A DNA stretch of 64,000 nt from Candidatus Uhrbacteria bacterium (GTDB lineage Bacteria > Patescibacteriota > Patescibacteriia > GWA2-47-26): assembly GCA_016187515.1 (NCBI GenBank), contig JACPJN010000006.1, positions 192,856 to 256,855 on the forward strand. Reading direction: 5' to 3'. The position numbers and the translations under genes were made by a program. This document shows, piece after piece, positions 4,044 to 29,759 of the stretch (positions are counted from its first letter, which is position 1; each line of letters starts with the position of its first letter). Under the pieces are notes generated by a model that was not told the DNA's origin, did not search any database, and saw only the letters and a list, made by a program, of their open reading frames with translations.

Positions 4044-4418
4044 CTAGCCGTCCTCAATCGCCTGCGCAAAAGCGGTACCCACCCCGGACGGAACAGCCAG
4101 CACCCCAAACCGCATGATTCTGAATATGGCCGGCGAAGGACGGTTGGGCAGGGTCACCTGAAAACAGTGGCCTTCCTGCACCCGCAAGAGTTCCCAAAGC
4201 CGGTAAGCCGCGGCGTACGGACTCACGGTATTGCCCAGCACGCCGGCGCGCAGGCGAAACGGGTCGGTCTCGCTCCCCGTGCCTTCCACCATCCCCAGAT
4301 TCGGACAATACTGCCGCGCTTGTTCAATTTCTTGATACGGATTAAAGATGGGCCTGATCTGTCCGCTGTCGTCGTTGGAGATCGCGATTGCCGGCGGAAT
4401 GATTCCTTGGATCCTCAT
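4044..4418 (-). CDS. hypothetical protein
   Basis: A 124-aa ORF of mixed composition. The overlapping + ORF 4032-4445 is Arg/Pro-rich and looks like an artefact. Confidence 0.3.
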   Translation of the reverse strand: MRIQGIIPPAIAISNDDSGQIRPIFNPYQEIEQARQYCPNLGMVEGTGSETDPFRLRAGVLGNTVSPYAAAYRLWELLRVQEGHCFQVTLPNRPSPAIFRIMRFGVLAVPSGVGTAFAQAIEDG

Positions 4419-4460
4419 GGGTTATCCTCCTTACTGCCACCATAGCACCAGCCGCTCCGC

Positions 4461-4489
4461 TTGTCAAGGCCAAAAAAACCGGATATTAT
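4461..4489 (+). promoter_or_regulatory. sigma70-like promoter for valS: TTGTCA, 17 nt, TATTAT
   Basis: ttgtca sits at 4461-4466, then a 17-nt spacer, then tattat at 4484-4489. That is about 12 nt upstream of the valS ATG at 4502. Confidence 0.4.
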
Positions 4490-4501
4490 AGATGAATCAT
4501 T

Positions 4502-6982: not shown

Positions 6983-7824
6983 CCCCGCTTCGCACGTTTC
7001 TCACAATCGCTAGAGCATTGGCCAAAAGCCCCATGCATTTTTGGGATGAACAGGACCAAAAGACGTTACTCAAAGAAACCGATGACGCGGCCAAGCGACT
7101 GCTCAAAACATTGGAACAAAAAGACCTTAAAGATACACAGGCGTATAAGCATTTAGACGTGCTTGAAAAATCAGTTACGGAAAAAGAAATTGATGAGCTT
7201 GCTTTTTCGCAAGCCCTGGCGAATTTAGTGGAAGTATACCGCCAATCCCCGCCCACTGAAAATTTGCAAGAATTGCTGGAAGAAATCAACCCGTATGTCA
7301 TCAAGGCCAAACAGCGCGTGCTGGAATATCACATTGCGCTGGAGCAGCTTAGGAAAAAAAGCAAAAAAATGAGCGAGGAGGAAAAGCTCAAAAGCGATCG
7401 GGAAACCATTAAAAATGTGGGGGTATTCTATGTGCTGGAATACACCTTACAGGTACTTTGGGAATTTGCACACATTCCAGATGAAGATAAGAAAAAACTC
7501 CTGACTGAAGGGCTCAAAACCAAAGCGGGGAATTTGCCGGCCTACTTGCCGCTGGAAGACACCTTTCGCAAAGAGCTCTGCTACAAAATGTTTGATGAGG
7601 ATTTACGGGATAAATTACTCCACGCATTTTACGAATTGGAAGAAGTGTTATATAGTGAGGATCTGAAGGCAATCGGAGGCGCGCTCAAAGCATTCCATCT
7701 TGAATTACTCAAGGCCTTTCAATCCAAAGGCATGCAAACCTACAAAGCCGTGGCCTACGCGCCGTTTGGGAATGATGTGAGTGTGGAGGAATTGGTTAAG
7801 AAAATTGAGACGGTCAAGGTCTAA
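6979..7824 (+). CDS. hypothetical helical protein
   Basis: Its ATG at 6979 overlaps the valS TGA at 6980-6982 (an ATGA overlap). The protein is Lys/Glu-rich with predicted coiled coil. Confidence 0.5.
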   Translation: MTPLRTFLTIARALAKSPMHFWDEQDQKTLLKETDDAAKRLLKTLEQKDLKDTQAYKHLDVLEKSVTEKEIDELAFSQALANLVEVYRQSPPTENLQELLEEINPYVIKAKQRVLEYHIALEQLRKKSKKMSEEEKLKSDRETIKNVGVFYVLEYTLQVLWEFAHIPDEDKKKLLTEGLKTKAGNLPAYLPLEDTFRKELCYKMFDEDLRDKLLHAFYELEEVLYSEDLKAIGGALKAFHLELLKAFQSKGMQTYKAVAYAPFGNDVSVEELVKKIETVKV

Positions 7825-8070
7825 AAGGAACGGAAAAATACTATCCCTATATTGCATCCAAAGAGCTTAATCTGCAGATTTTGCCAAAATAAAATACAGC
7901 CCCTACTCCCTTGCGGGAGACGCCACCATGAAGGCGACTAGTCAGGGCTGTATCAATTCCACTATCACCATACCATAAGATACAATATCTGTCAAGACAA
8001 CGGTGGGGATAAGTCATGCATAGCAACAATATGATAACGCAATAACTTAATAACCAAATAACTCATCAAT

Positions 8071-8946
8071 ATGCCAACCCCGGGAGACGAGAAAAAACCA
8101 AAGCAAGAAAGACCTCAAGGACCAGAGACGCTGGAGGAGGCCGCGGCGCGCGCGGCCGGAGTAGCGCGGGCGGGAAGGGAAAAAGCGGCTGGAGCGGCGC
8201 TGGCGGAGGCGGAAAAAGCATGGGATCCAGACAAATTTCTCGCACAATTGACGAGTTATCAAGACAACCCTCAATTACCAGATTACGAAGAGAAGATGGA
8301 CGCGCTTGGAGATCAATTTCAGGAATTTGGGGAGCAGTACGCAGATCGTTGGCAGGAAATGATAGAGCAGGGATTGGGCGGAACGCCGGAAATGGTTGCT
8401 GTACTTCGAGAAAAACTTCGAGGAAAGTTGCTGGTAGATCTTGGAGGCGGATACACGCTTGGAGATGGCCCAAGAGGTATTATGCAGTCAATCATGCAAG
8501 ATGTGGCGCTGGAGCTTGGAGTTAAGGATTATGTGAATGTTGATCGCCATTTTACCAAACGAAGGGTATCCGCATTTTTTAATCCTACAGATGTGACGAG
8601 GAGACTTGGCATTGAACAGCCAAGAGGGATGCATGCGCTTTATGTGCAAGCAGATATGCTCGCTTTCCTTGCGCATATGCAGAGCGAGACTCCAAATTTA
8701 ACAATCGCGCTAAATGGTATTGATTCATTTGTGATTCCTGATCGGGCGCGCTTTGGCCGCGGTGATTCATATTTTCAAATGCTTGTGAAGGAGATCGCTC
8801 GTGTACTACCCAAAGGTGGAGTAGTGCTGACCCAAGGATCTGAAGACGCAACAAAGTATTTTGATGATGCTGTATTTGAAGCAGCGCCAGGATACTCAAA
8901 AGAAAAAGGTGCGATGTTTGAAGGGCAGGTGTGGGTAAAAAAATAA
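8071..8946 (+). CDS. hypothetical protein, paralog A. It has a shared N-terminal module and a possible Rossmann-like GGG motif (LLVDLGGGYTLGDG).
   Basis: The N-terminal ~45 aa (MPTPGDEKKPKQERPQGPETLEEAAARAAG...AALAEAEKA) and about 30 nt of upstream sequence are shared with the 9050 gene. Confidence 0.5.
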   Translation: MPTPGDEKKPKQERPQGPETLEEAAARAAGVARAGREKAAGAALAEAEKAWDPDKFLAQLTSYQDNPQLPDYEEKMDALGDQFQEFGEQYADRWQEMIEQGLGGTPEMVAVLREKLRGKLLVDLGGGYTLGDGPRGIMQSIMQDVALELGVKDYVNVDRHFTKRRVSAFFNPTDVTRRLGIEQPRGMHALYVQADMLAFLAHMQSETPNLTIALNGIDSFVIPDRARFGRGDSYFQMLVKEIARVLPKGGVVLTQGSEDATKYFDDAVFEAAPGYSKEKGAMFEGQVWVKK

Positions 8947-9049
8947 ATCATCTATGATATAGCGGTGTCGTGATATGCAATTTAAGAGGATGTATTTGAT
9001 TACCTGGATCCAGCGGGCTGCGATCCATAACTAATAATAACTCACCAAT

Positions 9050-10054
9050 ATGCCAACCCCAAAAGGCGAGAAAAAACCAACACCAGAACAGCCCAAAGGG
9101 CCAGAAACGCCGGAGGAAGTTGCGGTGCGCGTGGCGGGCGCAGTGCAGGCAGGAAAAGAAAAATCCGCCGCCGCGGCGCTGGCAGGGGCGGAGACCGAAG
9201 CACCGACGGCAGAGCGTGCTGAACAAGATCCTGCGGCGCAAGCCCGCGAGATTGCTCAAAAGTATCTTGACACAATTCCGGAGGCGGACAGAAAACTTAC
9301 TGACCCCAAACAGGTTGAAACTTTATTGTATGTCCTTGAAAGTACTTACACCCCTCCGGGCAGTCAACTATTTGCAAATGTAGATAGGCTCGGGAATATG
9401 CCTACACGTGCACGAGAAGCTTTTTTTAAAAAAGATGTTAAAGGGCTGGCGCAAGCATGGCGAGATTATGCTGACGATCCTGTTGGTGTTGCTAAAGAAG
9501 CCGATAAATTGAGGCAGATTGGCGCAAGTACTCTTCCGGAGTCGGTGCGCACAGCGCTACTCTCTATCATTTTGAAAGAGGGGGATCATTCCGTGGTTGA
9601 GATGGCAAAAGATGCCGCGGCAGCATTGGAGCAGACTGGTGATCTGGGAGCGTTAAAATCATTGAGGGAAAAATATCTCACACCTGAAGTATTCAAGGCG
9701 ACTTCCTTGCGGCAAGACGTTGCCCGTGAACTTCTTAAGGGGTTGTATCCGGATTTAATGCAACGTGAAGAAGTGGCATTCTTTGAGGAAATGAGTAGTT
9801 TGCCTGATGAAAAATCATCTGATAAAAACACCGTCGTGGCCATGGTCGAACGGTATGGGCAATTATTGGGTGATGCACCACTATCGGAGCGGGCTAGTGA
9901 TGAGTTAGAGGGTGCAATAAATCCGCAGGACGTCATCACTAAGATACAGGACGGTAGTATCCCAGAGCATGCTCTTGGGGCCGTTATTTCTGCGCTTCAA
10001 GTAGAAGCACGGTCCAAAATTGCTCAAAAAGCAACCTCGGCGGAGAAGAAGTAA
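9050..10054 (+). CDS. hypothetical protein, paralog B (shared N-terminal module, different C-terminal domain)
   Basis: It begins MPTPKGEKKPTPEQPKGPETPEEVAVRVAG...AALAGAE. The conserved upstream sequence is ataactaataataactcaccaatATG. Confidence 0.5.
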   Translation: MPTPKGEKKPTPEQPKGPETPEEVAVRVAGAVQAGKEKSAAAALAGAETEAPTAERAEQDPAAQAREIAQKYLDTIPEADRKLTDPKQVETLLYVLESTYTPPGSQLFANVDRLGNMPTRAREAFFKKDVKGLAQAWRDYADDPVGVAKEADKLRQIGASTLPESVRTALLSIILKEGDHSVVEMAKDAAAALEQTGDLGALKSLREKYLTPEVFKATSLRQDVARELLKGLYPDLMQREEVAFFEEMSSLPDEKSSDKNTVVAMVERYGQLLGDAPLSERASDELEGAINPQDVITKIQDGSIPEHALGAVISALQVEARSKIAQKATSAEKK

Positions 10055-10086
10055 CAGGTAATCGCCAACTCTTTACTAATTTGCAG

Positions 10087-10240
10087 TTGTACTATAAAAT
10101 AGTTGTATATGCCCCGTAGTAGAAGTTCGACAGCGACTGTTTCACTGCGGTGCATAGCACGAAATACCCTTCAGGGAGGTTATTCCCTGGAATAAACATT
10201 AACCCTTAAGTTCCAGTCGAACTTTCACTACGGGGTATGC
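10087..10240. repeat. Long near-perfect inverted repeat (19 of 20 bp arms) enclosing about 90 nt. It may be a structured RNA or the termini of a miniature element.
   Basis: The left arm is ccccgtagtagaagttcgac (10111-10130). The right arm is gtcgaactttcactacgggg. The middle contains the hairpin agggaggttattccctgg. Confidence 0.45.
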
Positions 10241-10479
10241 ACACTAACGAAACACTGCGCGGACGACTCCGCACCCCTAAAGAAGTAGAACTTGAAAAAG
10301 AATTAAACCTCCCTATCGGAAGCGAGGTAAGTATTAACATTATCTCGACAGCACCTTCTACAAGTGCGGCATTTATCCGTTTTAAGCGCGCCGTAGGGAG
10401 CTGGAAAGATATTCCAGAAGATTTTATCAAGCGTGTCTATGCCGATCGCCACTTCAGCACCCGCCGGGAACCCCAGTAG
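10237..10479 (+). CDS. putative AbrB/SpoVT(MazE/VapB)-like antitoxin remnant
   Basis: The segment ELNLPIGSEVSINIIS resembles the swapped-hairpin AbrB-type antitoxin core. It sits immediately upstream of the VapC fragment. This is a weak call. Confidence 0.25.
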   Translation: MHTNETLRGRLRTPKEVELEKELNLPIGSEVSINIISTAPSTSAAFIRFKRAVGSWKDIPEDFIKRVYADRHFSTRREPQ

Positions 10480-19364: not shown

Positions 19365-21770
19365 ATGCCGACGCCAAAGACAAAACGAACTTCTAAAAAA
19401 CCGTCATCAACAACCGCGGCGGCCGTTACCGCGTCAAGCGCGCTCTGGCACTATGAGCACCAGCCGGAAACCTACCAGCCGGAAGCCGGCGATCCTGCCG
19501 ACAACCGCGCTCAAAGCGTCCCCATCAGCCCGACTGTAAATCACCAAACCCCGGATCGCTTATCAAAATCCTCAATCTGGCTTAAACTGCAGGCCCTGGC
19601 GATCTTCCTTTTTCCTTTCCTGGTCTGGCCCGGGAGCAGCTCGCCTTTGGAATTTTCCAAACAAACCTACCTGGCCATCCTGGTGGGGTTTACCCTGCTT
19701 GCGGTCCTAATTGACTCTTGGAAAAAACAATCCTTTAGCATCCTGGTCCGCCATCCGTTTTTATTTACCGGATTTACGGTTCTGGTCCTGGCCGCGGTCA
19801 GCGCGTCCCGTTCCGGACTGGCCGCGCTGGGAGTATGGGGATACGGCGGGACCGAATCGCTCTCGCTTATTTCTCTCGGACTGCTCGGACTTTGGACCCT
19901 GCTTATCTTTCATACCGCGCGCCGGTCAAAACGGCTGATCGTAAACGCGCTGATCGCTTCCGGCAGTATCTTGAGTTTAGTTACGCTGCTTGCTCTGCTG
20001 GGTCTGAATCTCTACCGCTTCATGCCCACATCCGGATTTAATCCGGCCGGAACCACTACCGCGGCTCTGTTAGTCGGCCTTGGCGCGCTGATTTTAGCCC
20101 TGGGTCTATGGCTAAACCGCCAATCGAAAAAATCCGCCATTATCTACGCGCTGGCGATAGTTCCGCCGCTGATCTTGCTTTTGGGCAGCGGATTCCGCGC
20201 GCCGCTTATCGCCGCCGCCTCCGGCTTGCTGGTGCTACTGATCATCCAGGCGCGCGCGGGAGTCAAATCCCCGGCCCGGCTCACGGTCCTGCTTCTTGGC
20301 CTGATTATCGCCGTGGTTCTGGCGATTTGGCCATTGACTGCTTTCCTGCCCACCCCCTTGGAAATCGGGCCATCTCACCCTGAAACTTTGTCCATCGCCA
20401 AACAAGCACTTGCTGTCCATCCCATACTGGGATCCGGGCCCGCCAGCTTTTCCGCGAATTACTTGCAGTTCCGCTCGTTACCGATTCTTCAAACCCCTTT
20501 CTGGAATGTCTCCTTTGATTGGGGTTCTTCGGCAATCTTGACGGCGCTTACCAACCTGGGCCTCCTGGGCGGCGGACTGCTCGTCATCTCCCTCCTTGCA
20601 GTGCTGATTTGGCACGGAGCCAAATTCTTCCTTGATAAATCCGGAGCCAGACCCGCGGATTATTCCGGAGCGCTGCTGGCCTCCGGAGCGGCCCTGCTTA
20701 CGGCCTTCGCGCTTTCGCCAATGTTATTTGCTCCGCAATTCTTCTTGGCCACGATCTTGGGGCTCATGCTTTCAATTTCCGCGCGTCCATTCAGCATCGC
20801 TCCCCCAAAGGCCGCCGCTTCAATTATAATGCCCGCCGTGGGAGCAATTGCCATCTTACTTATCGTTGGACTTTTTATCGGCCAGGGTCGGCGGGTTTTC
20901 GCCGAGGCGTTGGCGGTCCAGGGCGTGCGCCTCGCCCAAGAAAACCCGGCCGAAGCCCAGCTGAAAATTGCTCGCGCGCTTCGCCTGGACCGGCGGAATG
21001 ATTCTTATCTGCGGATGCTTACTGAACTGCAAAGGAGTATTCTAAACCAAAAATTAAACGCGGCCTCTGCCAGTCCGGACCAGCAAAACCTCGTTTCCGA
21101 AATTCGCGCGATCGCCGACGGAGCGCTGCAGACCGCTGAAGCCGGAACCGAGTTGGCTCCGCGCAATGTCTTAAACTGGGCAACGCTTGGCAACGTTTAT
21201 CTGGAGATCAGTCCGATTACCAGCGGGGCCTCCGCGGCCGCCGCAGCGGCCTTTGCCAAAGCGCTGGAGCTCTCCCCCGCTGATCCGTCACTGCTCGTCA
21301 ATCTGGGTATCGCGCGCGCGCTGGAGGCGCGCGCCGCGCCGGATTCGGAAAAACAAAAAAACGAGGAAGAGGCGACCAAGTCGCTACTTCGGGCCGCGGA
21401 GATCCGTCCGAACTTCCCGTTCGCGCATCTTGAACTGGCGCGGCTTTACGCGTCTTTGAATAAGACCGACGAAGCGATCACGGCCTATCGTAACGCGGAG
21501 ACCCTCGTCCCCCAAGACGCCGCGCTGCGCTATGAAGTCGGGTTATTCTTGCTGCAAAAAGATCGCCAAGACGAGGCGCGCGCGCAACTGGAGGCCGCTA
21601 TCGCGATTTCCGCCAATTTCTCCAACGCCCGCTGGTTTCTGGCGCAAATTCTGGAAGAGGAAGAAGATCTAAGCGGCGCGCTGGAACAAATCCGAAAAGT
21701 CCTTGAACTCAATCCGGAAAACGAACAAGCCAAAGACCGGCTAGTAAAACTCCAGGAGAAGATAAAATAA
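19365..21770 (+). CDS. O-antigen ligase (Wzy_C)-like polytopic membrane protein with C-terminal TPR repeats
   Basis: About 12 TM segments, then TPR-like repeats (YRNAETLVPQDAALRYEVGLFLLQ...). Confidence 0.6.
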   Translation: MPTPKTKRTSKKPSSTTAAAVTASSALWHYEHQPETYQPEAGDPADNRAQSVPISPTVNHQTPDRLSKSSIWLKLQALAIFLFPFLVWPGSSSPLEFSKQTYLAILVGFTLLAVLIDSWKKQSFSILVRHPFLFTGFTVLVLAAVSASRSGLAALGVWGYGGTESLSLISLGLLGLWTLLIFHTARRSKRLIVNALIASGSILSLVTLLALLGLNLYRFMPTSGFNPAGTTTAALLVGLGALILALGLWLNRQSKKSAIIYALAIVPPLILLLGSGFRAPLIAAASGLLVLLIIQARAGVKSPARLTVLLLGLIIAVVLAIWPLTAFLPTPLEIGPSHPETLSIAKQALAVHPILGSGPASFSANYLQFRSLPILQTPFWNVSFDWGSSAILTALTNLGLLGGGLLVISLLAVLIWHGAKFFLDKSGARPADYSGALLASGAALLTAFALSPMLFAPQFFLATILGLMLSISARPFSIAPPKAAASIIMPAVGAIAILLIVGLFIGQGRRVFAEALAVQGVRLAQENPAEAQLKIARALRLDRRNDSYLRMLTELQRSILNQKLNAASASPDQQNLVSEIRAIADGALQTAEAGTELAPRNVLNWATLGNVYLEISPITSGASAAAAAAFAKALELSPADPSLLVNLGIARALEARAAPDSEKQKNEEEATKSLLRAAEIRPNFPFAHLELARLYASLNKTDEAITAYRNAETLVPQDAALRYEVGLFLLQKDRQDEARAQLEAAIAISANFSNARWFLAQILEEEEDLSGALEQIRKVLELNPENEQAKDRLVKLQEKIK

Positions 21771-21793: not shown

Positions 21794-21826
21794 AAACGGC
21801 TCACCCGGCCGGGTGAGCCGTTTTTC
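21794..21826 (+). terminator. rho-independent terminator
   Basis: A perfect 24-nt palindrome cggctcacccggccgggtgagccg is followed by ttttt. Confidence 0.6.
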
Positions 21827-21909
21827 AGTTTTGGCGGCAAATTCTTTGAAAATAAGGAAGAGGGCCTCACACGTAAGTATGAAAGCCCTCAATGGACGAA
21901 CCCTGGGAC

Positions 21910-22365
21910 TCATCGTCGGATTGCAATGAGCGATGCGCCGATGATAGCGAGTACCACGCCCAGAAACGACCAACCGTCGGTCTTCACAGAATTGAAATAG
22001 TTGGGTGCCCACCGCGACAGCAAGGCAGCGACGAGGAACACTCCAACGCTTGCTACATTGGCAATCGCGACTGGCAAACCGGGATTCGGAGCACCGGCTA
22101 CCGCACGGAATAGCAGAATGTTAGCGATTGCTCCGATGGTGAGACCGATCAGCAGTATTGCCAGCACAAGTTTCCCGGAGGGCACGATTGTGCTCAACGA
22201 CGAACCCCCGAAAAGCACGGACGTGATAGCAATTCCTAAGAAATACCAAATCAGAAACACATCTGGTTTAATCTGATAGTTCCGGTCGAAAAATCCGATG
22301 GCGAGCCACGCGGGTACGAGACACAACATGGCAACCACAGATTGTCCAAGCCAATTTCCGCTCAT
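21910..22365 (-). CDS. hypothetical membrane protein (about 4 TM)
   Basis: A 151-aa hydrophobic ORF. Local GC is higher than in neighbouring housekeeping genes. Confidence 0.5.
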   Translation of the reverse strand: MSGNWLGQSVVAMLCLVPAWLAIGFFDRNYQIKPDVFLIWYFLGIAITSVLFGGSSLSTIVPSGKLVLAILLIGLTIGAIANILLFRAVAGAPNPGLPVAIANVASVGVFLVAALLSRWAPNYFNSVKTDGWSFLGVVLAIIGASLIAIRR

Positions 22366-22646
22366 TATGGTAGCCCTCCTTTCAAGGTACAGTTTGATTC
22401 CACTTGGGCACGGTACCCAAGTTTACTCACAATGTAGCATAACTCATCCAATACGTCAATGAGCGGCGCATTGCCGCTCATTGAAAGAAATCAATATAAA
22501 AAAATTTCTTTTCCTAAAGTATGGTTCAAGCCGATATTTTTCGCCAGGTTCTTTGGTAGTTTTTATCGGTGCGGCTCCACCGCCTTCCCAAATTTTCGCG
22601 GGGGGGATTTTTTCGGAAAAATGCGTTCGGACTAATTCAAGAATAC

Positions 22647-22692
22647 TGCTCCCAGTAGGAATCGAACCTACATCCTAGGATCCGGAATCCTA
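22647..22692 (-). pseudogene. tRNA-Arg(CCG) 3' fragment (anticodon arm, T-arm and acceptor 3' strand only)
   Basis: The reverse complement reads TAGGA-TTCCGGA-TCCTA GGAT GTAGG-TTCGATT-CCTAC TGGGAGCA. No matching 5' acceptor strand is present. Its sequence differs from the intact tRNA-Arg at 23483-23554. Confidence 0.5.
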
Positions 22693-22713
22693 CTTTATGC
22701 CTTGATGCTCTTA

Positions 22714-22748
22714 TACTCATTTTAGGTGCGATCGCAAATAAATGAGTA
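22714..22748. repeat. 35-nt hairpin repeat, copy 1 (tactcattttaggtgcgatcgcaaataaatgagta)
   Basis: A perfect 9-bp stem tactcattt/aaatgagta with an internal gcgatcgc palindrome. Identical copies lie at 38495-38529 and 39188-39222. Confidence 0.6.
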
Positions 22749-22877
22749 TGGCATAAACCAAGGAAAAGGAATTGGGGTGTAAGAATTCCAAAGGAGAACG
22801 CCATGATTTTAGAAAAAACGAGAGCCCCGAGCGGAAATGAATTCCACAAGGGGCTCGTGATGGGAACCGCGCTCCTG

Positions 22878-23285
22878 TCACATGAACAGGTGAACGATCC
22901 ATCCGAAAAAAAGAGCGAGCGACGGCTTCACAACGGACATCGCGGTTCCTTCCGCGATTTTCTCGCCGAAGCTCTTTTCTTCTTTCTTGCAGTCGTGCAT
23001 ATGGTAGGTGAGGTATCTCACCACCATGGCGATGCCGATTGCCGGAACGATGTGCAGCGCGGACGCGCCGAAGGTCGGAACCACGAACCAACCCCACAGC
23101 ACGCTCAAGGCGTAGCCGTTGAAGATGGAGCTGAAGAACATCAGGACCCCGATCCCGACGATACTGCCGAGAACAGCCTTTGCAGTCATGTTTACCTCCT
23201 CAAGGTACTGAATTACCACGATTCCCTCGTGGCGAGGCGTACCGGATTCCATGGCTCTTGCCAGTATTCCGATGCCGTTAAGCAT
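22878..23285 (-). CDS. hypothetical membrane protein (3-4 TM)
   Basis: A 135-aa ORF lying between the two tRNA-Arg-derived direct repeats. Confidence 0.5.
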   Translation of the reverse strand: MLNGIGILARAMESGTPRHEGIVVIQYLEEVNMTAKAVLGSIVGIGVLMFFSSIFNGYALSVLWGWFVVPTFGASALHIVPAIGIAMVVRYLTYHMHDCKKEEKSFGEKIAEGTAMSVVKPSLALFFGWIVHLFM

Positions 23286-23382
23286 AGCATATTACGGGTT
23301 GTATGTCAAGCCCAAAACAAAAACCAGCATTTCTGCTGTTTTATGACCTAAATCTTATGAATTCAATACCGCACCATTCCAT

Positions 23383-23399
23383 TGCTCCCAGTAGGAATC
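23383..23399 (-). repeat. Second copy of the tRNA-fragment 3' end (tgctcccagtaggaatc)
   Basis: A 17-nt exact direct repeat of 22647-22663. Confidence 0.4.
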
Positions 23400-23482
23400 T
23401 CCGCCCGAGGCGCCCGCCCGCCTTGGGAGGGGATGCGCCTTTGGCGCAGAACCGCCCAGGATCCGCCCCGCGCTTTTTCTTT

Positions 23483-23554
23483 GCGCCCACGAGGAATTGA
23501 ACCTCGATCACAGGTTCCGGAAACCTGTACTTTATCCATTAAGCTATGGGCGCA
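23483..23554 (-). tRNA. tRNA-Arg with anticodon CCG
   Basis: The reverse complement reads GCGCCCA-TA-GCTT-AATGGATA-AAGT-A-CAGGT-TTCCGGA-ACCTG-TGAT-CGAGG-TTCAATT-CCTCG-TGGGCGC-A. Confidence 0.8.
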
Positions 23555-23634
23555 CAGGAAAGGTGCGGGGTATCCATTGTCCGCCGGAGGCGGATCAGCC
23601 TTTGGCTGAAACTATAGGAGCATGCCGATGACAA

Positions 23635-24672
23635 CTAAAAAATGTTTCTTCCAAGCCGATATACCATATACCAAAACTGGCTCAAGGGCAAGTCAAAAGT
23701 GCCGGGGTAGTTCACGACCTTGCCGCCGAATCCCATTTTGAACCGCGTCATGCCAGACCAATCGCGCACACCCTCACCCCCGCCCTCTCCCATCGAGGGA
23801 GAGGGAGAGTGAATGCCCCAGAAATCGTAAAACTTGTACCCTTCTTTTTTCACCTCCTGCATAATTTGCCAATGCAAAGCATACGGTCCCATCAATGCGC
23901 GATGTGCGTAGGAGGAGGCGCCGTGCAAATACGTGGCCGTGTCGCCAAAATATCCTACCATCGCCGCGGCAAGAGGAGTGGAGTCGGAGTAGGCGATGTG
24001 GAGGCGCATATGCATGCGATTGGATATTGGAGATTGGATATTGGATATTTGTTCCGAATCTCGAATCTCTAATCTCGAATCTCCCAGTATCTCCAGTATC
24101 TTCTCATAATACCCCCGCTCATGCGTCCGAAACTTATCGCGCTTCGCGGTTTCTTCAAGCAGCTTCCAAAATTTTTCAAAGTCATCTCGAATCTCTAATC
24201 TCGAATCTCTAATCTCGACGCCTCGCCGCAAGGCGAGACGTATGTTGTATCGCGTCTTTTCATGCATCGCAGCAAGCAGTTCTTCTTCGGATTGCGCAAG
24301 ATCAATGAGCAGCGTCTGCATGGGACTTACCGACTTTGTAGGACGGAGGACGGAGGACGGAGGACGGAGTTTTTGCAGTGGTTCCATACGCACAAATATC
24401 GCTCCATGTTTTTTTGCTTTTTCTATAATTCCATCGATTAGCGTCCCGCGCGGAATAAACCAATACTTCTTACCAAACGGCAGCGGCAGCTCAATCACTT
24501 GCGCCGCACTGTGAACTGCTGACTGTGAACTATTGACTAATCTGTACACTTGCCGTCCTACAGATTCCTGAAACTCCCCCCACTCCCACGACTGCAAAAA
24601 AATTCCCGCTTGGCTTGGCCTGGAAAGTAGGGATCCGTTCCAAATTTTTGGATCATTGGCCTCAACTAACAT
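23635..24672 (-). CDS. FemAB-family peptidoglycan interpeptide-bridge aminoacyltransferase
   Basis: FemAB-like segments KTRYNIRLALRRG, YLHGASSYAHR and YDFWGI. It is riddled with simple-repeat insertions (RLEIRD twice, DGGRS etc.). I place the start at MLVEAN. Confidence 0.6.
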   Translation of the reverse strand: MLVEANDPKIWNGSLLSRPSQAGIFLQSWEWGEFQESVGRQVYRLVNSSQSAVHSAAQVIELPLPFGKKYWFIPRGTLIDGIIEKAKKHGAIFVRMEPLQKLRPPSSVLRPTKSVSPMQTLLIDLAQSEEELLAAMHEKTRYNIRLALRRGVEIRDSRLEIRDDFEKFWKLLEETAKRDKFRTHERGYYEKILEILGDSRLEIRDSEQISNIQSPISNRMHMRLHIAYSDSTPLAAAMVGYFGDTATYLHGASSYAHRALMGPYALHWQIMQEVKKEGYKFYDFWGIHSPSPSMGEGGGEGVRDWSGMTRFKMGFGGKVVNYPGTFDLPLSQFWYMVYRLGRNIF

Positions 24673-24676
24673 ATAA

Positions 24677-24907
24677 TCACATATTTTCCAACAGTTCAAA
24701 ATATCTATCCCTACTCATCCTTGCAGTCCGCAAACAGTTCTTAATAATGAAAACAGGGATCTCGTCATAGGTCGGGATTACCACCGGCCTTAAGATCCCT
24801 AGTTTGGTAAGCACAATATGGCTTCCTTCTTGGCGCACTATGGTAAATCCATCCTGCTCAAAAACACGCACAAGTTTTTTGTAATGCAATGCAACAATCT
24901 TCGGCAC
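24677..24907 (-). CDS. hicA: HicA-family mRNA interferase toxin
   Basis: KKLVRVFEQDGFTIVRQEGSHIVL....IPTY.DEIPVFIIKNCLRTARM matches the HicA/YcfA consensus. Confidence 0.6.
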   Translation of the reverse strand: MPKIVALHYKKLVRVFEQDGFTIVRQEGSHIVLTKLGILRPVVIPTYDEIPVFIIKNCLRTARMSRDRYFELLENM

Positions 24908-24919
24908 ACTGCTTGCAGA

Positions 24920-25222
24920 TTATGAAACCGCAACACTCATCTTCTCAATCGCAAGTATCTCCGGAGCTCGCCATCCTTCCACACTGCGCACATAGCCGGA
25001 CTCCTCAAGAATATCGCGGAGCGTTCCCATGCGTTCAGCTTCATCAACAAAAAGTCCCATCGCTTCGCGCAGATTCTTACGTGCCTCATCAATGGTATTT
25101 CCCATGCTTGAAACGTCTAATTCCGGCGCCCAAGCCACAAAATGTCCGCCATCCCTCCATATTTCAGTGGTGAAATTAATTGCCGCATTCATATTATCGT
25201 ATTTTACCATCACCTTTTCCAA
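24920..25222 (-). CDS. hicB: HicB-family antitoxin
   Basis: The HicB N-domain pattern reads Y...E.W..DGGHFVAWAPELDVSSMGNTIDEARKNLREAM. It lies immediately upstream of hicA with a 12-nt gap. Confidence 0.6.
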   Translation of the reverse strand: MEKVMVKYDNMNAAINFTTEIWRDGGHFVAWAPELDVSSMGNTIDEARKNLREAMGLFVDEAERMGTLRDILEESGYVRSVEGWRAPEILAIEKMSVAVS

Positions 25223-25813: not shown

Positions 25814-28800
25814 TCATACCTTTCTCATTCCCACCCATATTTTATTGTTGTTTTCAAGGGGGATTTCGTATGACCAGGACATCTCTTGCGGCGCGTTTAC
25901 AAGTTTCACCGCGCGGGCCAGGACTGCTTTGCGCAGTTGTTTTTGATATTCTTTGACAACACCCCTCACCCCGCCCTCACCCGGCCTTTCGGCCACCCTC
26001 TCCCGCGGGGAGAGGGGAGGGTGAGGGTTCATGATTGCAATCAGTATGTCCACCTTGTCGGACGGCGTCAGTCCTGCGGCTTTGCGCGCGTCGTTGATCA
26101 GGCGCGTAAGTTCGCGAGCGAGGCCTTCTTTTTTAAGTTCCGGGGTGAGTTCGGTATTGAGTGAGACGGTGAGATTGCCGTCGGTTTTAGTGATCCAGCC
26201 GCCCCCTCCCCTCGCCCCTCCCACCAAGGGAGGGGAATTTCCAATCGTTTCCTCCCCCGCGACAGTCTCCCTCTCCCCCTGTGGGAGAGGGTTGGGGTGA
26301 GGGGTGGAGGATTTAGGAGGGGGGACAATCGTCACCTCCCTCACATTCACCTCCTCCGCAATTAATTGTAGCAAAACATCGCGATTCGCACTTTCTAATT
26401 TCCAATTTCCAATTTCCAATTTCCCCAATGGTTGTCTCACCTTCAACTTCGCTTCCGCCCGCGCCGCGTGCGCCAGCTCCACCACCTTACGCGCCGCGCT
26501 CATCTCTTCAAGCAGCGCCGTATCAATTTTTGCTTTCTTGAGTTTTGGCCAGTCGGATAAGTGAACGGATATTGGATGATTGGATGATTGGATGATTGGT
26601 GATTCATTGTCTTTTCGAATCTCTAATCTCGAATCTCTAATCTCCCGATACACATGCTCCGCCAAAAACGGCATAAATGGGGCAAGCACTTGCGACAGAG
26701 TATGTAGAACGTAGCGGGTAGTGAGTAAGGCGACGCGCTTCTCGCTTTTCTTTCCCTTAAAACGATCACGACTGCGGCGAAGATACCATTGGGAGAGATC
26801 AGCGATAAAATCCTGTATGGGCCGGCTGGCCTCGGATAATTTATATGCCTCCATATTCTCGGTCACCTCCTGAATCAGTTGATGCAACCGTGCGGCAATC
26901 CATTTGTCCAATATATGTTTAGAATTTGGAATTTTGAGTTTGGAGTTTGTTTGGGATTTGGGATTTGGAATTTGGAATTTTTCGTCTTGTGGTGCGTACA
27001 ATTTATAAAACTCCACCACATTCAAAAGCATGCTGACTACTTTATTATACATCTCGCGCACGCCTGCCTCCGAGAAATTTAAATTCTCCGCGTGCATGAC
27101 CGGAGAAGTCGCAAAGTAATAACGCAAGGCATCCGCGCCATACTTATTTATTACCGCCTCCGGTTCCGGATAATTTTTAAGGCGCTTGGCCATTTTTTTG
27201 CCATCTTCCGCCAGCACAATGCCATTGACAATCACGTTTTGAAACGCCGGCACGACTTTGCCAATCGGGATAGCTGGCGTTTTGCCGCGGGTAAGCGCCA
27301 CGGCTAGCACATGAAGCGTATAAAACCAGCCGCGGGTTTGATCCTGTCCTTCAGCAATAAACTCCGCTGGAAACGCCGCCTCAAACCGATCCTTATTTTC
27401 AAACGGATAGTGCATTTGCCCGTAGGGCATGCTTCCGGACTCAAACCAGCAATCTAATACTTCCGGAATGCGCTTCATTGTTCCTCCGCACTGCTTACAA
27501 GGAAAAGTTAATTCATCAACAATATGTTTATGCAAATCACCCACTGATTTCTCCACCAATTTTTCCAACTCTGCCACAGAACCGACAACGATAATGTTTT
27601 GACATTTGGAATTTGAATTTTGTTTGTCATTTGTAATTTGTAATTTGTAATTTCCGGTTTGGCATCGCCAAACCGGCAGCGGCGTTCCCCAAAAACGATT
27701 GCGTGAAATCGCCCAGTCGCGCGCGCCTTCAAGCCATTTGCCAAAACGCCCTTCCTTAATATACTCCGGCACCCAATTCGTCTTTTTATTGGCTGAAAGC
27801 AAAAGCTTTTTTAATTCGGTCACGCGCACAAACCAGCTGGAGGTTGCGTAATTCAAAAGCGGGGTATCACAGCGCCAGCAATGCGGATAGCTATGCGTGA
27901 TTGGCTCTGCGCGAAACAATTTGCCGCTTCCGCGCAGCCATTCTACAATTTTTTCATCTGTGGCGCCGGGATTGTCTTTGGGCTTAACTTCCCAACCCTT
28001 GAAATCCGCGACCTCCTCCTTAAAGCGGCCGTCCATACCCACATGCTGAACCAGCGGAATTTTTTGCTTTTGTCCAACCTGATAATCATTCTCGCCAAAA
28101 GCCGGCGCAATATGCACAACACCCGTACCATCTTCGGTCGTAACAAAATCTCCGGCCACCACCCGAAACGCGCGCTCGGTATCTTTATAGTATGGAAATA
28201 ATGCTTCGTATTTTAGCCCAACCAAGTCCTTGCCTTTAAGCTCTTTTACCACCTCGTATCCTCCACCAAGCATGGAAAGTCGCGCTTTGGCCAGAATGTA
28301 GTATTCGTCACCATTCGTAACCCCCCTATCCCCCCTTACCCTAAGGGGGGAATTTTCTGCGGCTCCCTCCCTTAAAGTAAGGGAGGGCTGGGGTGGGTTA
28401 TGAATCTTCACCACCACATAATCAACATCCGGATTTACCGCCAGAAGGACATTCCCCGGCAATGTCCATGGGGTTGTCGTCCAAGCCAGAAGATAAGTTG
28501 GTAAGTTGTAAGTTGTAAGTTGTAACTTACTACTTACTTGCTTACTACTTACAACTCGGAATTTCACGGTCACCGCCTTCTCTTTTACATCTTTATAGCC
28601 CATCGTTACTTCAAAATTTGAAAGCGGAGTTCCACAACGCGGACAAATATGCATGGCCTTGTATCCTTCATAAATCAACCCTTGTTTCCAAAGTTCCTTA
28701 AACACCCACCACACGCTTTCCATGTACGAAAGATCCATGGTTTTGTAGTCGCGCTCCATATCCACCCAGCGTCCAATGCGGCGGATTGTCTTTTTCCACT

Positions 28801-29173
28801 CTTCCACATAAGTCAGCACGGCCGCGCGGCAGGCCTCGTTGAATTTGGTTACCCCACAGACCTCAATCGCCTGGCGACTTGATAAATTTAAGTTCTTTTC
28901 CACGATATTTTCAACCGGAAGCCCATGGCAGTCCCAGCCCCATTTGCGCTCCACGCGATACCCGCGCATTGTCCAAAACCGCGGCACAATATCTTTCATC
29001 AGCGAAGCGACAATATGCCCGTAGTGCGGAAGGCCGGTGGCAAACGGCGGGCCGTCGTAAAACACAAAATCGCCGCGGGGCGCGGGTTTTTCCAGTGATT
29101 TCTCAAACACGTGGTGCTCGTCCCAGTATTTGAGTATTTCCTCTTCAATTTCGGGAAATTTTGGTTGAGCCAT
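25814..29173 (-). CDS. ileS: isoleucyl-tRNA synthetase
   Basis: HIGH motif (PHYGHIV) and KMAKRLKN (KMSKS). It carries at least 6 tandem-repeat insertions and 3 palindromic insertions. I place the start at MAQPKFPEIEE. Confidence 0.85.
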   Translation of the reverse strand: MAQPKFPEIEEEILKYWDEHHVFEKSLEKPAPRGDFVFYDGPPFATGLPHYGHIVASLMKDIVPRFWTMRGYRVERKWGWDCHGLPVENIVEKNLNLSSRQAIEVCGVTKFNEACRAAVLTYVEEWKKTIRRIGRWVDMERDYKTMDLSYMESVWWVFKELWKQGLIYEGYKAMHICPRCGTPLSNFEVTMGYKDVKEKAVTVKFRVVSSKQVSSKLQLTTYNLPTYLLAWTTTPWTLPGNVLLAVNPDVDYVVVKIHNPPQPSLTLREGAAENSPLRVRGDRGVTNGDEYYILAKARLSMLGGGYEVVKELKGKDLVGLKYEALFPYYKDTERAFRVVAGDFVTTEDGTGVVHIAPAFGENDYQVGQKQKIPLVQHVGMDGRFKEEVADFKGWEVKPKDNPGATDEKIVEWLRGSGKLFRAEPITHSYPHCWRCDTPLLNYATSSWFVRVTELKKLLLSANKKTNWVPEYIKEGRFGKWLEGARDWAISRNRFWGTPLPVWRCQTGNYKLQITNDKQNSNSKCQNIIVVGSVAELEKLVEKSVGDLHKHIVDELTFPCKQCGGTMKRIPEVLDCWFESGSMPYGQMHYPFENKDRFEAAFPAEFIAEGQDQTRGWFYTLHVLAVALTRGKTPAIPIGKVVPAFQNVIVNGIVLAEDGKKMAKRLKNYPEPEAVINKYGADALRYYFATSPVMHAENLNFSEAGVREMYNKVVSMLLNVVEFYKLYAPQDEKFQIPNPKSQTNSKLKIPNSKHILDKWIAARLHQLIQEVTENMEAYKLSEASRPIQDFIADLSQWYLRRSRDRFKGKKSEKRVALLTTRYVLHTLSQVLAPFMPFLAEHVYREIRDSRLEIRKDNESPIIQSSNHPISVHLSDWPKLKKAKIDTALLEEMSAARKVVELAHAARAEAKLKVRQPLGKLEIGNWKLESANRDVLLQLIAEEVNVREVTIVPPPKSSTPHPNPLPQGERETVAGEETIGNSPPLVGGARGGGGWITKTDGNLTVSLNTELTPELKKEGLARELTRLINDARKAAGLTPSDKVDILIAIMNPHPPLSPRERVAERPGEGGVRGVVKEYQKQLRKAVLARAVKLVNAPQEMSWSYEIPLENNNKIWVGMRKV
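26200..26326. repeat. Largest palindromic element (~125 nt) in-frame in ileS. Further copies lie at 25961-26030 and 28318-28402.
   Basis: It contains ccccctcccctcgcccctcccaccaagggaggggaa...ctccctctccccctgtgggagagggttggggtgaggggtgg. Confidence 0.6.
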
Positions 29174-29240
29174 AACGAGAAACAGTGTATCGCATTTATC
29201 TGCTTTTTGCAATCGCTCGGTCGTGGTATACTGTGGAGAT

Positions 29241-29759
29241 ATGAAACCAACCATTTACCTCGGCGGGGATCATGCCGCGTTTGAGCTGAAGGAAAAAATC
29301 ACGGCGTATTTGAAAACGCGCGGCTATATAGTGCGCGATTTCGGGCCGCACACGTATGATCCGGATGATGATTACCCGGATTTTGTGATTCCAATGGCCA
29401 AAGCAGTTGGGCGCGCAGGACCCCTCCTTAATCCTCCCCTTAAAAAGGGGAGGAAAAAAGTTGAGGTACGCGGCATGGCGCTTGGCGGATCCGGTATCGG
29501 CGAATGCATCGCGGCCAACAAAGTAAAAGGGGTACGCGCGGTGCGCGCGTGGGATAAAGTCAGCGCAAAGATGAGTAGATGGCACAATGATACCAATGTG
29601 CTTTGTCTTGGCGGCGGGAAAACCATGGACAAAACGCAAAACGTCGGCCTCACCTTTGCCCAAGCCAAACCAATTATCGACACTTGGCTGACCACTCCCT
29701 TCTCCAACGCCCCGCGACATGTACGGAGATTGAAAAAAATCTCAAGGATTGATAAATAA
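29241..29759 (+). CDS. rpiB: ribose-5-phosphate isomerase B
   Basis: IYLGGDHAAFELKEKI...DDYPDF...GGSGIGECIAANKVKGVRA...RWHNDTNVLCLGG matches the RpiB/LacAB family. It is divergent from ileS. There is a palindromic insertion at 29421-29458. Confidence 0.75.
   Translation: MKPTIYLGGDHAAFELKEKITAYLKTRGYIVRDFGPHTYDPDDDYPDFVIPMAKAVGRAGPLLNPPLKKGRKKVEVRGMALGGSGIGECIAANKVKGVRAVRAWDKVSAKMSRWHNDTNVLCLGGGKTMDKTQNVGLTFAQAKPIIDTWLTTPFSNAPRHVRRLKKISRIDK

Follow-up and report, generated by a model that had tools for sequence, protein, structure and literature searches.

A probable integrase-less island at a tRNA-Arg(CCG) gene in a member of the Patescibacteria

Integrative elements that target tRNA genes leave a characteristic signature, in which a tRNA gene and a displaced tRNA fragment enclose an island; the Islander approach to such tRNA-gene (tDNA) islands excludes candidates that are shorter than 2 kb or lack an integrase (PMC4383910). 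Cis-mobilizable elements (CIMEs) of streptococcal integrative and conjugative element (ICE) families are defined by the absence of integration and transfer genes and the retention of attL and attR (PMC6323972), tRNA islands of the Tycheposon type are described from Prochlorococcus (bioRxiv 10.1101/2020.12.28.424599), and in the tRNA-dependent lysogeny of actinobacteriophages a host tRNA gene is destroyed and a tRNA that shares its isotype is supplied (PMC10865867). Here we describe a locus that resembles each of these in part. It lies in a stretch of 64,000 nt from the genome of an uncultured groundwater bacterium, a Candidatus Uhrbacteria (GCA_016187515.1, 355,817-bp contig JACPJN010000006.1, positions 192,856 to 256,855; hereafter "the window", with position 1 at its first letter), where an intact tRNA-Arg(CCG) gene is surrounded by pieces of an older tRNA gene and followed by two genes for small membrane proteins. 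The stretch between the flanking FemAB and TPR genes probably is a small island, which grew by one insertion after another at a single tRNA-Arg(CCG) gene and has lost all its recombinases, and we have reasonable confidence that the 0.74 kb between two tRNA-derived direct repeats are an att-flanked remnant without an integrase.

The host belongs to the Patescibacteria (the candidate phyla radiation, CPR), which have tiny genomes. Few mobile elements have, to our knowledge, been described in this group, and we know of no described ICEs in it. As a scar, the feature is of an ordinary kind. What goes beyond routine is that small cassettes of phage type recur at the ends of tRNAs throughout the Patescibacteria, together with the nested replacement of a tRNA with a fixed 5' breakpoint.

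Displaced tRNA pieces and unoccupied sites

In the sense of the tRNA the locus reads from high to low coordinates, and every feature of the island is on the minus strand of the window. The order is FemAB, the intact tRNA-Arg(CCG), its trailer, a 17-nt repeat, a small gene, a 46-nt tRNA fragment, about 280 nt of noncoding DNA, a 151-aa gene, and a terminator. The FemAB-family gene (23635-24699, minus strand; Pfam FemAB, E 1e-41) is the left anchor. FemAB followed by tRNA-Arg(CCG) is an arrangement conserved in many Patescibacteria; the tRNA is present in 43 of the FemAB-containing loci fetched from relatives, mostly directly after FemAB. The right anchor is a convergent 801-aa TPR/O-antigen-ligase-like gene (19365-21770) in synteny with three related loci (L020, L021, and L102), and a terminator with an 18-nt perfect palindrome (21794-21823) is common to this gene and the island side.

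A previous reading of the window from its sequence alone (the sequence-only reading) had reported an intact tRNA-Arg(CCG), and both Rfam (23482-23553, 68.1 bits) and ARAGORN (23481-23554, minus strand) agree on this gene, whose allele we call W. The same reading had noted a 46-nt 3' fragment of a different tRNA-Arg(CCG) "upstream" of it. The fragment (22647-22692) is real, although on the minus strand it lies downstream in the sense of the tRNA. It extends from the anticodon stem to the discriminator and comprises the anticodon arm (TAGGA-TTCCGGA-TCCTA), the variable loop, the T arm, the 3' strand of the acceptor stem, and the discriminator. On the Rfam tRNA model it scores 27.0 bits (E 0.0083), just below the gathering score of 29. 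ARAGORN calls no tRNA gene at 22647-22692, and the fragment is no functional tRNA gene, as the D arm and the 5' half are missing and the acceptor has mismatches.

The last 17 nt of the fragment (22647-22663) recur exactly at 23383-23399, in line with what had been noted before. This 17-mer (TGCTCCCAGTAGGAATC; in tRNA sense GATTCCTACTGGGAGCA) occurs exactly twice in the 64 kb, starting at 22647 and 23383, and no further copies appear when three mismatches are allowed. Shuffled sequence contained a mean of 0.07 matches, and two matches were found in none of 100 shuffles. A comparison of the flanks of both copies revealed nothing in common outside the 17 nt. Direct repeats that derive from a tRNA and lie at a tRNA gene are what a tRNA-targeting integrative element leaves; here, the copy at 23383-23399, which spans the tRNA from the middle of the T-loop to the discriminator (nt 56-72), is on the attL side, and the 46-nt fragment is the displaced piece on the attR side.

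The origin of the fragment became evident from related loci. It is identical at 46 of 46 positions to the tRNA-Arg(CCG) at the syntenic locus in L021 and L102, here termed tRNA*, and this identity breaks off at the first base of the anticodon stem, with none beyond. Given this match to the resident tRNA of relatives, the fragment is a 3' part that was displaced from the former resident allele, or else its copy in an attP. The earlier description of the fragment as foreign does not hold against L021 and L102 and would fit only relative to the present tRNA of the window. The latter matches 13 of the 17 terminal bases, and its anticodon and T stems differ throughout. This largely refutes the explanation that the 46-nt piece is a decayed local duplicate, or pseudogene, of the resident tRNA, with the 17-nt repeat as a leftover and the gene in between as incidental. 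Local duplicates do exist, as L085 has tRNA-Arg(CCG) as a tandem pair and L014 a partial copy of tRNA-Val with 81% identity, but at the window locus the identity stops abruptly instead of fading, the flanks are not duplicated, and the enclosed unit is mobile, which altogether makes a pseudogene very improbable.

The sequence-only reading had suggested comparing the occupancy of this locus in related genomes, and three of them indeed show it without the insert. In the metagenome contig L102, the end of FemAB (83.5% nucleotide identity to the window) is followed by 13 nt, a complete tRNA*, a terminator, and the convergent TPR gene. In L021, tRNA* is likewise present; a toxin-antitoxin pair has been inserted before it, and a 91-aa open reading frame (ORF) and the TPR gene come after it. 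The tRNA of L020 (Uhrbacteria 46_47) is an allele of its own, followed by a spacer of 72 nt, the 17-mer as in the window (9296-9312), a terminator, and the TPR gene. Neither the small-gene unit between the repeats, nor the 46-nt fragment, the Y-X block (see below), or the 151-aa gene is found in any of these three loci; thus, about 1.5 kb of the window (from 23382 to about 21850) are inserted DNA. The original gene of the clade at this position was tRNA*, which is still intact in L102 and L021. Both loci have further peculiarities: the two-gene pair between FemAB and the tRNA in L021 (2696-3312) is not that of the window and was judged by eye to be DUF433-like and PIN-like, and in L102 the FemAB 3' end is duplicated and a stray tRNA 5' piece (GCCCCCATAGA) is present.

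The present tRNA within the older one

The former tRNA has left a third piece in the window. A 5' stump (23611-23622, minus strand; GCTCCtATAGTT) matches nt 1-12 of tRNA* at 11 of 12 positions and begins about 13 nt past the FemAB stop, which is precisely the starting point of the complete tRNA* in L102; it is also present in L020. Between this stump and the 17-mer lie the leader of the present tRNA (23554-23610, 57 nt, with two hairpins and a stretch complementary to the trailer), the present tRNA itself, and a G+C-rich trailer of 81-82 nt (23400-23481), all on the minus strand. Compared with L102, nt 13-55 of tRNA* (43 nt) have been replaced by these 211 nt, so that the window retains nt 1-12, nt 56-72, and, separately, the 46-nt 3' part. 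The 17-mer at 23383-23399 is the 3' stump of a gutted tRNA* and not a free-standing att repeat. The scar of integration that had been proposed earlier stands as an integrase-less scar with cargo at a tRNA gene, and the nature of this repeat has to be revised. The intact tRNA differs from tRNA* along its entire length. Within the replaced segment, a G+C-rich palindromic motif (GGCGGATCCGCC, or CCAGAGGCGGAYCCGCC...GGGCGG) occurs at 23455-23470 and 23576-23600; it recurs in tRNA-Arg spacers of many Patescibacteria, for example L025, L030, L042, L061, and L063.

The nested layout is not confined to the window. L020 has the same two stumps, 28 of 29 positions being identical to those of the window, around another tRNA-Arg(CCG) allele, of which neither the leader nor the 72-nt trailer aligns with its counterpart in the window. 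We considered the stumps of both genomes as neutral relics of a single ancestral event and rejected this idea, because the flanking proteins are 41-74% identical and the stumps 28/29. In a scan of 44 FemAB-linked tRNA-Arg(CCG) genes, four genomes had the nested layout: the window (23383-23622, minus strand), L020 (9122-9312), L041 (about 8965-9120), and L042 (about 9155-9368). The old alleles differ among them; all four have their 5' break after nt 11-12, and three share TAGTT|TC as the sequence of this junction. L042 retains a 3' stump of 47 nt, the other three genomes one of 17-18 nt. Predicted RNA folds of the window unit (23383-23622, z = -4.5) and the L020 unit (z = -6.2) both close with the old acceptor stem. 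Such stem-closed folds are expected from the origin of the units and are no evidence of function.

The incoming DNA has disrupted its target and brought a tRNA that shares the target's isotype, as in tRNA-dependent lysogeny; at the nested tRNA, however, neither a prophage nor an integrase was found, and the flanks of 57 and 81 nt contain no ORF or shared core. Two other origins were tried and dismissed. The present tRNA cannot be a mosaic of an old middle part and element-borne ends, as would result from successive integrations of the 3' and 5' types, because nt 13-55 differ at about 11 of 43 positions. A cassette exchange at the GTTCRAT boxes shared by the D and T loops is at odds with the right junction, which retains no core.

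Cargo genes and their mobility

The gene between the repeats, HYW17_02180, is annotated with 135 aa (22878-23285), and the sequence-only reading likewise had it encode a 135-aa membrane protein. The enclosed membrane-protein gene was correctly recognized, but its length was not. Its 132 homologues with E <= 0.001 mostly have 99-113 aa; with their length of about 103 aa, they start at the internal Met (ATG at 23189). A GGAGG ribosome-binding site (23195-23199) precedes this ATG, and the -10 box (23286-23281) of a promoter predicted by sequence scan (TTGACA-17-TATGCT, 23281-23309) overlaps the start codon of the 135-aa version (23285-23283), which is thus unlikely to be on the transcript. Together, the lengths and starts of homologues, the GGAGG, and the -10 overlap argue for a multi-pass membrane protein of 103 aa (22878-23189), and the start in the database probably is 32 codons too far upstream. 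With a hairpin and T run upstream (23325-23338, from the scan) and a strong terminator downstream (22812-22856, read from the sequence), the gene forms an insulated expression unit. All these elements are on the minus strand.

Neither the 103-aa nor the 151-aa membrane protein belongs to a family in Pfam, NCBIfam, or PADLOC. The 103-aa protein matches PHROG 2169 ("membrane protein", moron category) with E 4e-14, and it has relatives on 152 IMG/VR viral contigs. These were retrieved by the alignment-based search only; the search for close relatives in viral contigs yielded nothing. On one phage contig, the relative is located among early genes near a RusA-like resolvase. The AlphaFold2 model (predicted local distance difference test score 85.7) consists of three long helices. 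A fold search with it found no match in the PDB, and significant structural matches were confined to phage proteins of 90-110 aa, all of them uncharacterised. The protein is most likely a phage accessory membrane protein. Its function could be, for example, the blocking of further infection, which is a guess.

Homologues of the whole unit, about 560 nt long (22806-23364, minus strand), occur in other Patescibacteria. In blastn comparisons with 23364-22806 as query, the identity was 88% over 560 nt to a JGI contig (L100), 83% to a contig of Candidatus Sungbacteria (L014), 81% to a JGI contig with a serine recombinase (L017), 78% to a contig that begins with a tRNA 3' end (L101), and 73% to L013. 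In contrast, the FemAB proteins of other genomes labelled Sungbacteria are just 35-41% identical to FemAB of the window. The unit lies 108 nt 3' of tRNA-Leu(GAG) in L014-16, about 200 nt past a tRNA 3' end in L101, and 1.9 kb from tRNA-Leu(TAG) in L017-19, where a large serine recombinase (Resolvase, Recombinase, and Zn ribbon domains) is encoded in between; L013 is the only locus with the unit but without a tRNA within 6 kb. As these comparisons show, the unit moves horizontally between distant lineages and usually lands beside tRNA genes. In L014, tRNA debris surrounds other tRNAs as well (7674-7975 and the 5161-5893 region). The aforementioned partial copy of tRNA-Val(TAC) in this contig is 90 nt long and lies 200 nt from the gene, and a LAGLIDADG ORF abuts tRNA-Leu(GAG).

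In the window, the unit is bordered on the left by a tRNA-trailer-like motif, M (ATGGAATGGTGCGG..., 23365-23382, minus strand), which also follows old tRNA 3' fragments in L042 and L061. On the right follows a unique arm (22693-22805, minus strand) with a hairpin (10-bp stem, 22713-22749), for which no homologue was found. Beyond the 46-nt fragment lies the Y-X block (22497-22648, minus strand), in which Y is one arm of an inverted-repeat family of about 95 nt and X an A+T-rich leader. At its outer end (CAGTATTC...), the block overlaps the fragment by the final two bases of the latter. In L017, the 103-aa unit is enclosed by perfect 95-nt inverted Y repeats (5677-5771 and 6483-6577), and L100 has the same layout. 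The Y-X sequences that precede the unit there are 71-77% identical to that of the window, and a Y copy in L042, which ends a different cassette, is 90% identical to the window Y. L017 and L100 have two arms; the 64-kb window has a single one and hence no element bounded by terminal inverted repeats. In L017 (3987-6580; JGI 3300013136, Ga0172370_10005042), the serine recombinase gene (4061-5536, minus strand) overlaps the 3' end of tRNA-Leu(TAG), and the 3.7 kb beyond (6600-10350) contain no called genes. Serine integrases are reported not to target tRNA genes (PMC4383910).

The second cargo gene, HYW17_02175 (21910-22365, minus strand), has its own promoter (22431-22459) and encodes a 151-aa membrane protein, annotated with 142 aa. 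Its 70 homologues, mostly of 148-155 aa, represent a second family of small membrane proteins in Patescibacteria, and several adjoin tRNAs (L106-L109). In L109 the gene is located about 175 nt past a tRNA 3' end. In L106 and L107 it is beside tRNA-Lys(TTT), with a 25-nt repeat of the tRNA 3' end about 190 nt away, and in L108 beside a 12-nt duplication of the 5' end of tRNA-Lys(TTT) that flanks a 110-nt insert. The sequence-only reading had placed this gene just outside the element. Since it is missing from the unoccupied sites and its family is found beside tRNAs, it belongs to the island. At the same locus of another Uhrbacterium, L042 (9300-10330, MGEK01000026), a 94-nt direct repeat (CA, M motif, and an X' leader) flanks a 201-aa gene and an inverted Y arm and then precedes a gene for a 315-aa membrane protein. 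This layout looks like a cassette array made from the same modules.

Toxin-antitoxin pairs are gained and lost at the FemAB locus, and in the window a HicA gene and a HicB-like gene lie between FemAB and RuvA (24677-25222, minus strand). The FemAB and IleRS genes contain in-frame low-complexity inserts of short DNA repeats (23768-23791, 24018-24223, 25959-25982, and elsewhere in 25814-29254), such as ATCTCGAATCTCTAATCTCGAATCTC and G+C-rich CCCTCACCCC runs, which encode peptides like SRLEIRD and PSPSMGEGGGEG.

History of the locus and known systems

From the tRNA* pieces and the unoccupied sites, which are seen directly, we infer the following order of events. The Y-X block and the 151-aa gene would first have been placed directly after tRNA*. 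An element would then have recombined with tRNA*; its attP would have consisted of the 3' half of tRNA* from the anticodon stem onward, followed by the trailer-like M motif. Integration would have regenerated tRNA* at the left junction (attL: tRNA*, M, and the 103-aa unit), of which only the 17-mer and M are left today, and would have shifted the displaced 46-nt 3' part to the right junction beside Y (attR: right arm, 46-nt piece, and Y). A later deletion may have removed most of the element including its integrase, whereas the self-contained phage-type 103-aa gene remained. Finally, a segment with the complete allele W and its own complementary leader and trailer would have replaced nt 13-55 of tRNA*. 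This replacement would have destroyed tRNA* and yet supplied a substitute, leaving the 12-nt and 17-nt stumps. The sharp start of the 46-nt fragment at the anticodon stem fits the class of attP sites centred on the anticodon, and the 17-mer fits the T-stem class (PMC4383910). The cargo is of phage type, as indicated by PHROG 2169, the 152 viral contigs, and the fold matches to phage proteins.

The ORFs of the island are the two small membrane-protein genes only, and an integrase of its own is not among them. As had been stated before, none exists between or beside the repeats; nor was a recombinase detected among ten large ORFs of the window or by tblastn with the L017 recombinase. This lack in the island and elsewhere in the window leads us to regard the insert as what remains of a tRNA-targeting element, either decayed or cis-mobilisable. 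The viral and metagenome scans with the fragment and the right arm brought up no related autonomous element that shares the att sites and could mobilise the insert, as a CIME would require. The scan of viral contigs with the 22-nt tRNA end detected only tRNA-Thr genes in phage tRNA arrays, and the metagenome scan with the 29-nt end recovered a single true tRNA*, that of L102, besides three tRNA-Arg genes of other isoacceptor types, but neither an attP nor an integrase. Viral scans with the right-arm hairpin sequence and the Y pattern returned nothing.

Several observations weigh against this history. In the scans just described, which returned ordinary tRNA genes only, no integrase-bearing element with a matching attP was found. 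The intact tRNA is not the hybrid of an old 5' half and an element-borne 3' half that a regenerated target should be, and hence an extra replacement step is needed. The conserved limits of the 103-aa unit fall at its terminators instead of at the repeats, so the unit may have arrived in a different vehicle each time. The right flank of the 46-nt fragment is mobile-looking DNA (Y) and not plain host flank, and the whole block could have been imported as one pre-assembled piece. Moreover, no retrieved independent contig spans 22649-22720, a gap of 72 nt that holds most of the fragment, and the junction bearing the fragment is present in the contig of the NCBI metagenome-assembled genome alone. 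For two ORFs that span this gap, a lookup of independent contigs gave nothing on record.

Outside this gap, independent Logan assemblies match the window exactly, from 23895 to 22721 and from 22648 downstream. Four sequencing runs yielded Logan contigs with the 103-aa gene, each of which ends at 22721, and those with the 151-aa gene begin at the outer end of the Y arm (22648, 22647, or 22630). The breaks at 22721 and 22648 may be due to a repeat or to population polymorphism precisely there. The uncovered 72 nt would be compatible with chance similarity or with an assembly chimera at a tRNA repeat common to members of the community. However, the two copies of the 17-mer are far beyond chance, and four independent assemblies agree on the 17-mer, the stumps, and the cassette. 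In addition, the FemAB...TPR synteny of every relative puts the two flanking Logan contigs side by side, which makes them neighbours in the genome. We thus judge an artefact to be extremely unlikely.

Another explanation is that the cassette is still alive and its 17-nt and 46-nt sites are used, in the manner of a CIME or an integron cassette, by an integrase that is encoded elsewhere in the genome or by an incoming element and would excise and re-insert the single-gene unit. The contigs of four samples that stop at 22721 and their neighbours that begin at 22648 or 22647 could then reflect a polymorphic population. In favour of this, the repeats agree at 17/17 positions, the unit is insulated as an expression module and turns up in many contexts, and by definition CIMEs carry attL and attR and no integration or transfer genes. 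On the other hand, the tRNA in attL is reduced to 17 nt and offers no anticodon-centred site on that side, Logan contigs pass unbroken through the 17-mer at 23383-23399 with no hint of an excised allele, and a cognate integrase was not found. A live cassette therefore is unlikely in our view.

A further explanation does without a site-specific integrase. The block could have come from a related Patescibacterium bearing tRNA*, through homologous or homology-facilitated illegitimate recombination with the tRNA as anchor. End fragments of tRNA-Arg genes, of own or other alleles and of varied lengths, flank at least 8 of the 43 loci, the present tRNA has evidently been swapped wholesale, toxin-antitoxin pairs come and go at the locus as well, and Y, the flank of the 46-nt piece, itself looks foreign. 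However, the limits of the fragments coincide with the two classical integrase crossover positions in the anticodon stem and the T-loop and are not placed at random. Furthermore, the repeats are direct and have nothing in common beyond themselves, and two unrelated cargo families recur beside different tRNA species. We consider this explanation rather unlikely.

A bolder proposal is that the locus reflects two linked and undescribed tRNA-centred mobility systems of Patescibacteria, single-gene cassettes and elements that replace tRNA-Arg(CCG). In the first system, small phage-type membrane-protein genes may be moved in trans between tRNA 3' ends, and sometimes they may reside inside 95-nt inverted-repeat elements beside a large serine recombinase. 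Elements of the second system may hit tRNA-Arg(CCG) after nt 12, destroy the target, and leave their own complete tRNA-Arg(CCG). If so, tRNA alleles would be replaced horizontally at a fixed breakpoint, as the nested layouts in the window, L020, L041, and L042 might illustrate. For the present we regard this proposal as doubtful.

Under the preferred history of successive insertions, the locus presents tRNA genes of Patescibacteria as active insertion hot spots, where phage-type membrane-protein genes are deposited and kept, and it indicates that a tRNA gene can be replaced by a foreign allele without loss of the isoacceptor. If a dedicated enzyme causes the breakpoint after nt 12, it would provide a route for the horizontal replacement of tRNAs, and its att site and recombinase would be a genetic handle for organisms that have none at present. 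If there is no such enzyme, the locus is an ordinary decayed island, the value of which lies chiefly in the correction of annotations.

Among known systems, foldback elements and miniature inverted-repeat transposable elements (MITEs) resemble the cassettes of L017 and L100, where the unit lies between inverted Y arms (95 nt and perfect in L017). In the window there is one Y arm only, a target-site duplication was not observed, and Y has no known transposase. tDNA islands and prophages (Islander; PMC4383910) share more with the window, namely direct repeats of a tRNA 3' end, unoccupied sites, and phage-type cargo. The 46-nt and 17-nt fragments also begin at the anticodon stem and in the T-loop, respectively, which are the two common crossover classes. 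In contrast to them, the insert of the window measures 0.74 kb and lacks an integrase, and the tRNA beside it was not regenerated but is a different allele inserted into the target. The CIMEs of streptococcal ICE families (PMC6323972) are similarly flanked by att sites and have kept cargo after their integration and transfer genes were gone. In the window the att repeats are exact and integration genes are lost, yet attL is cut to 17 nt of tRNA, and neither a partner ICE nor an integrase is known that shares this att. The host of the window also differs in being a Patescibacterium. For the nested tRNA, tRNA-dependent lysogeny of actinobacteriophages (PMC10865867) is the nearest described behaviour, since the host tRNA is destroyed and one of the same isotype supplied; this likeness concerns the nested tRNA only. 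The window has no prophage, no integrase, and no common core of about 10 bp at the junctions, and unlike in that system both ends of the old tRNA survive, with the middle 43 nt gone. The Tycheposon islands of Prochlorococcus (bioRxiv 10.1101/2020.12.28.424599) belong to another lineage and have a tyrosine recombinase and replication module that the window lacks, where the cargo units consist of single genes. Nevertheless, both are found beside tRNA genes in a streamlined host genome, where integration has been repeated, newer elements push older ones outward, and partial tRNAs and degenerate remnants accumulate.

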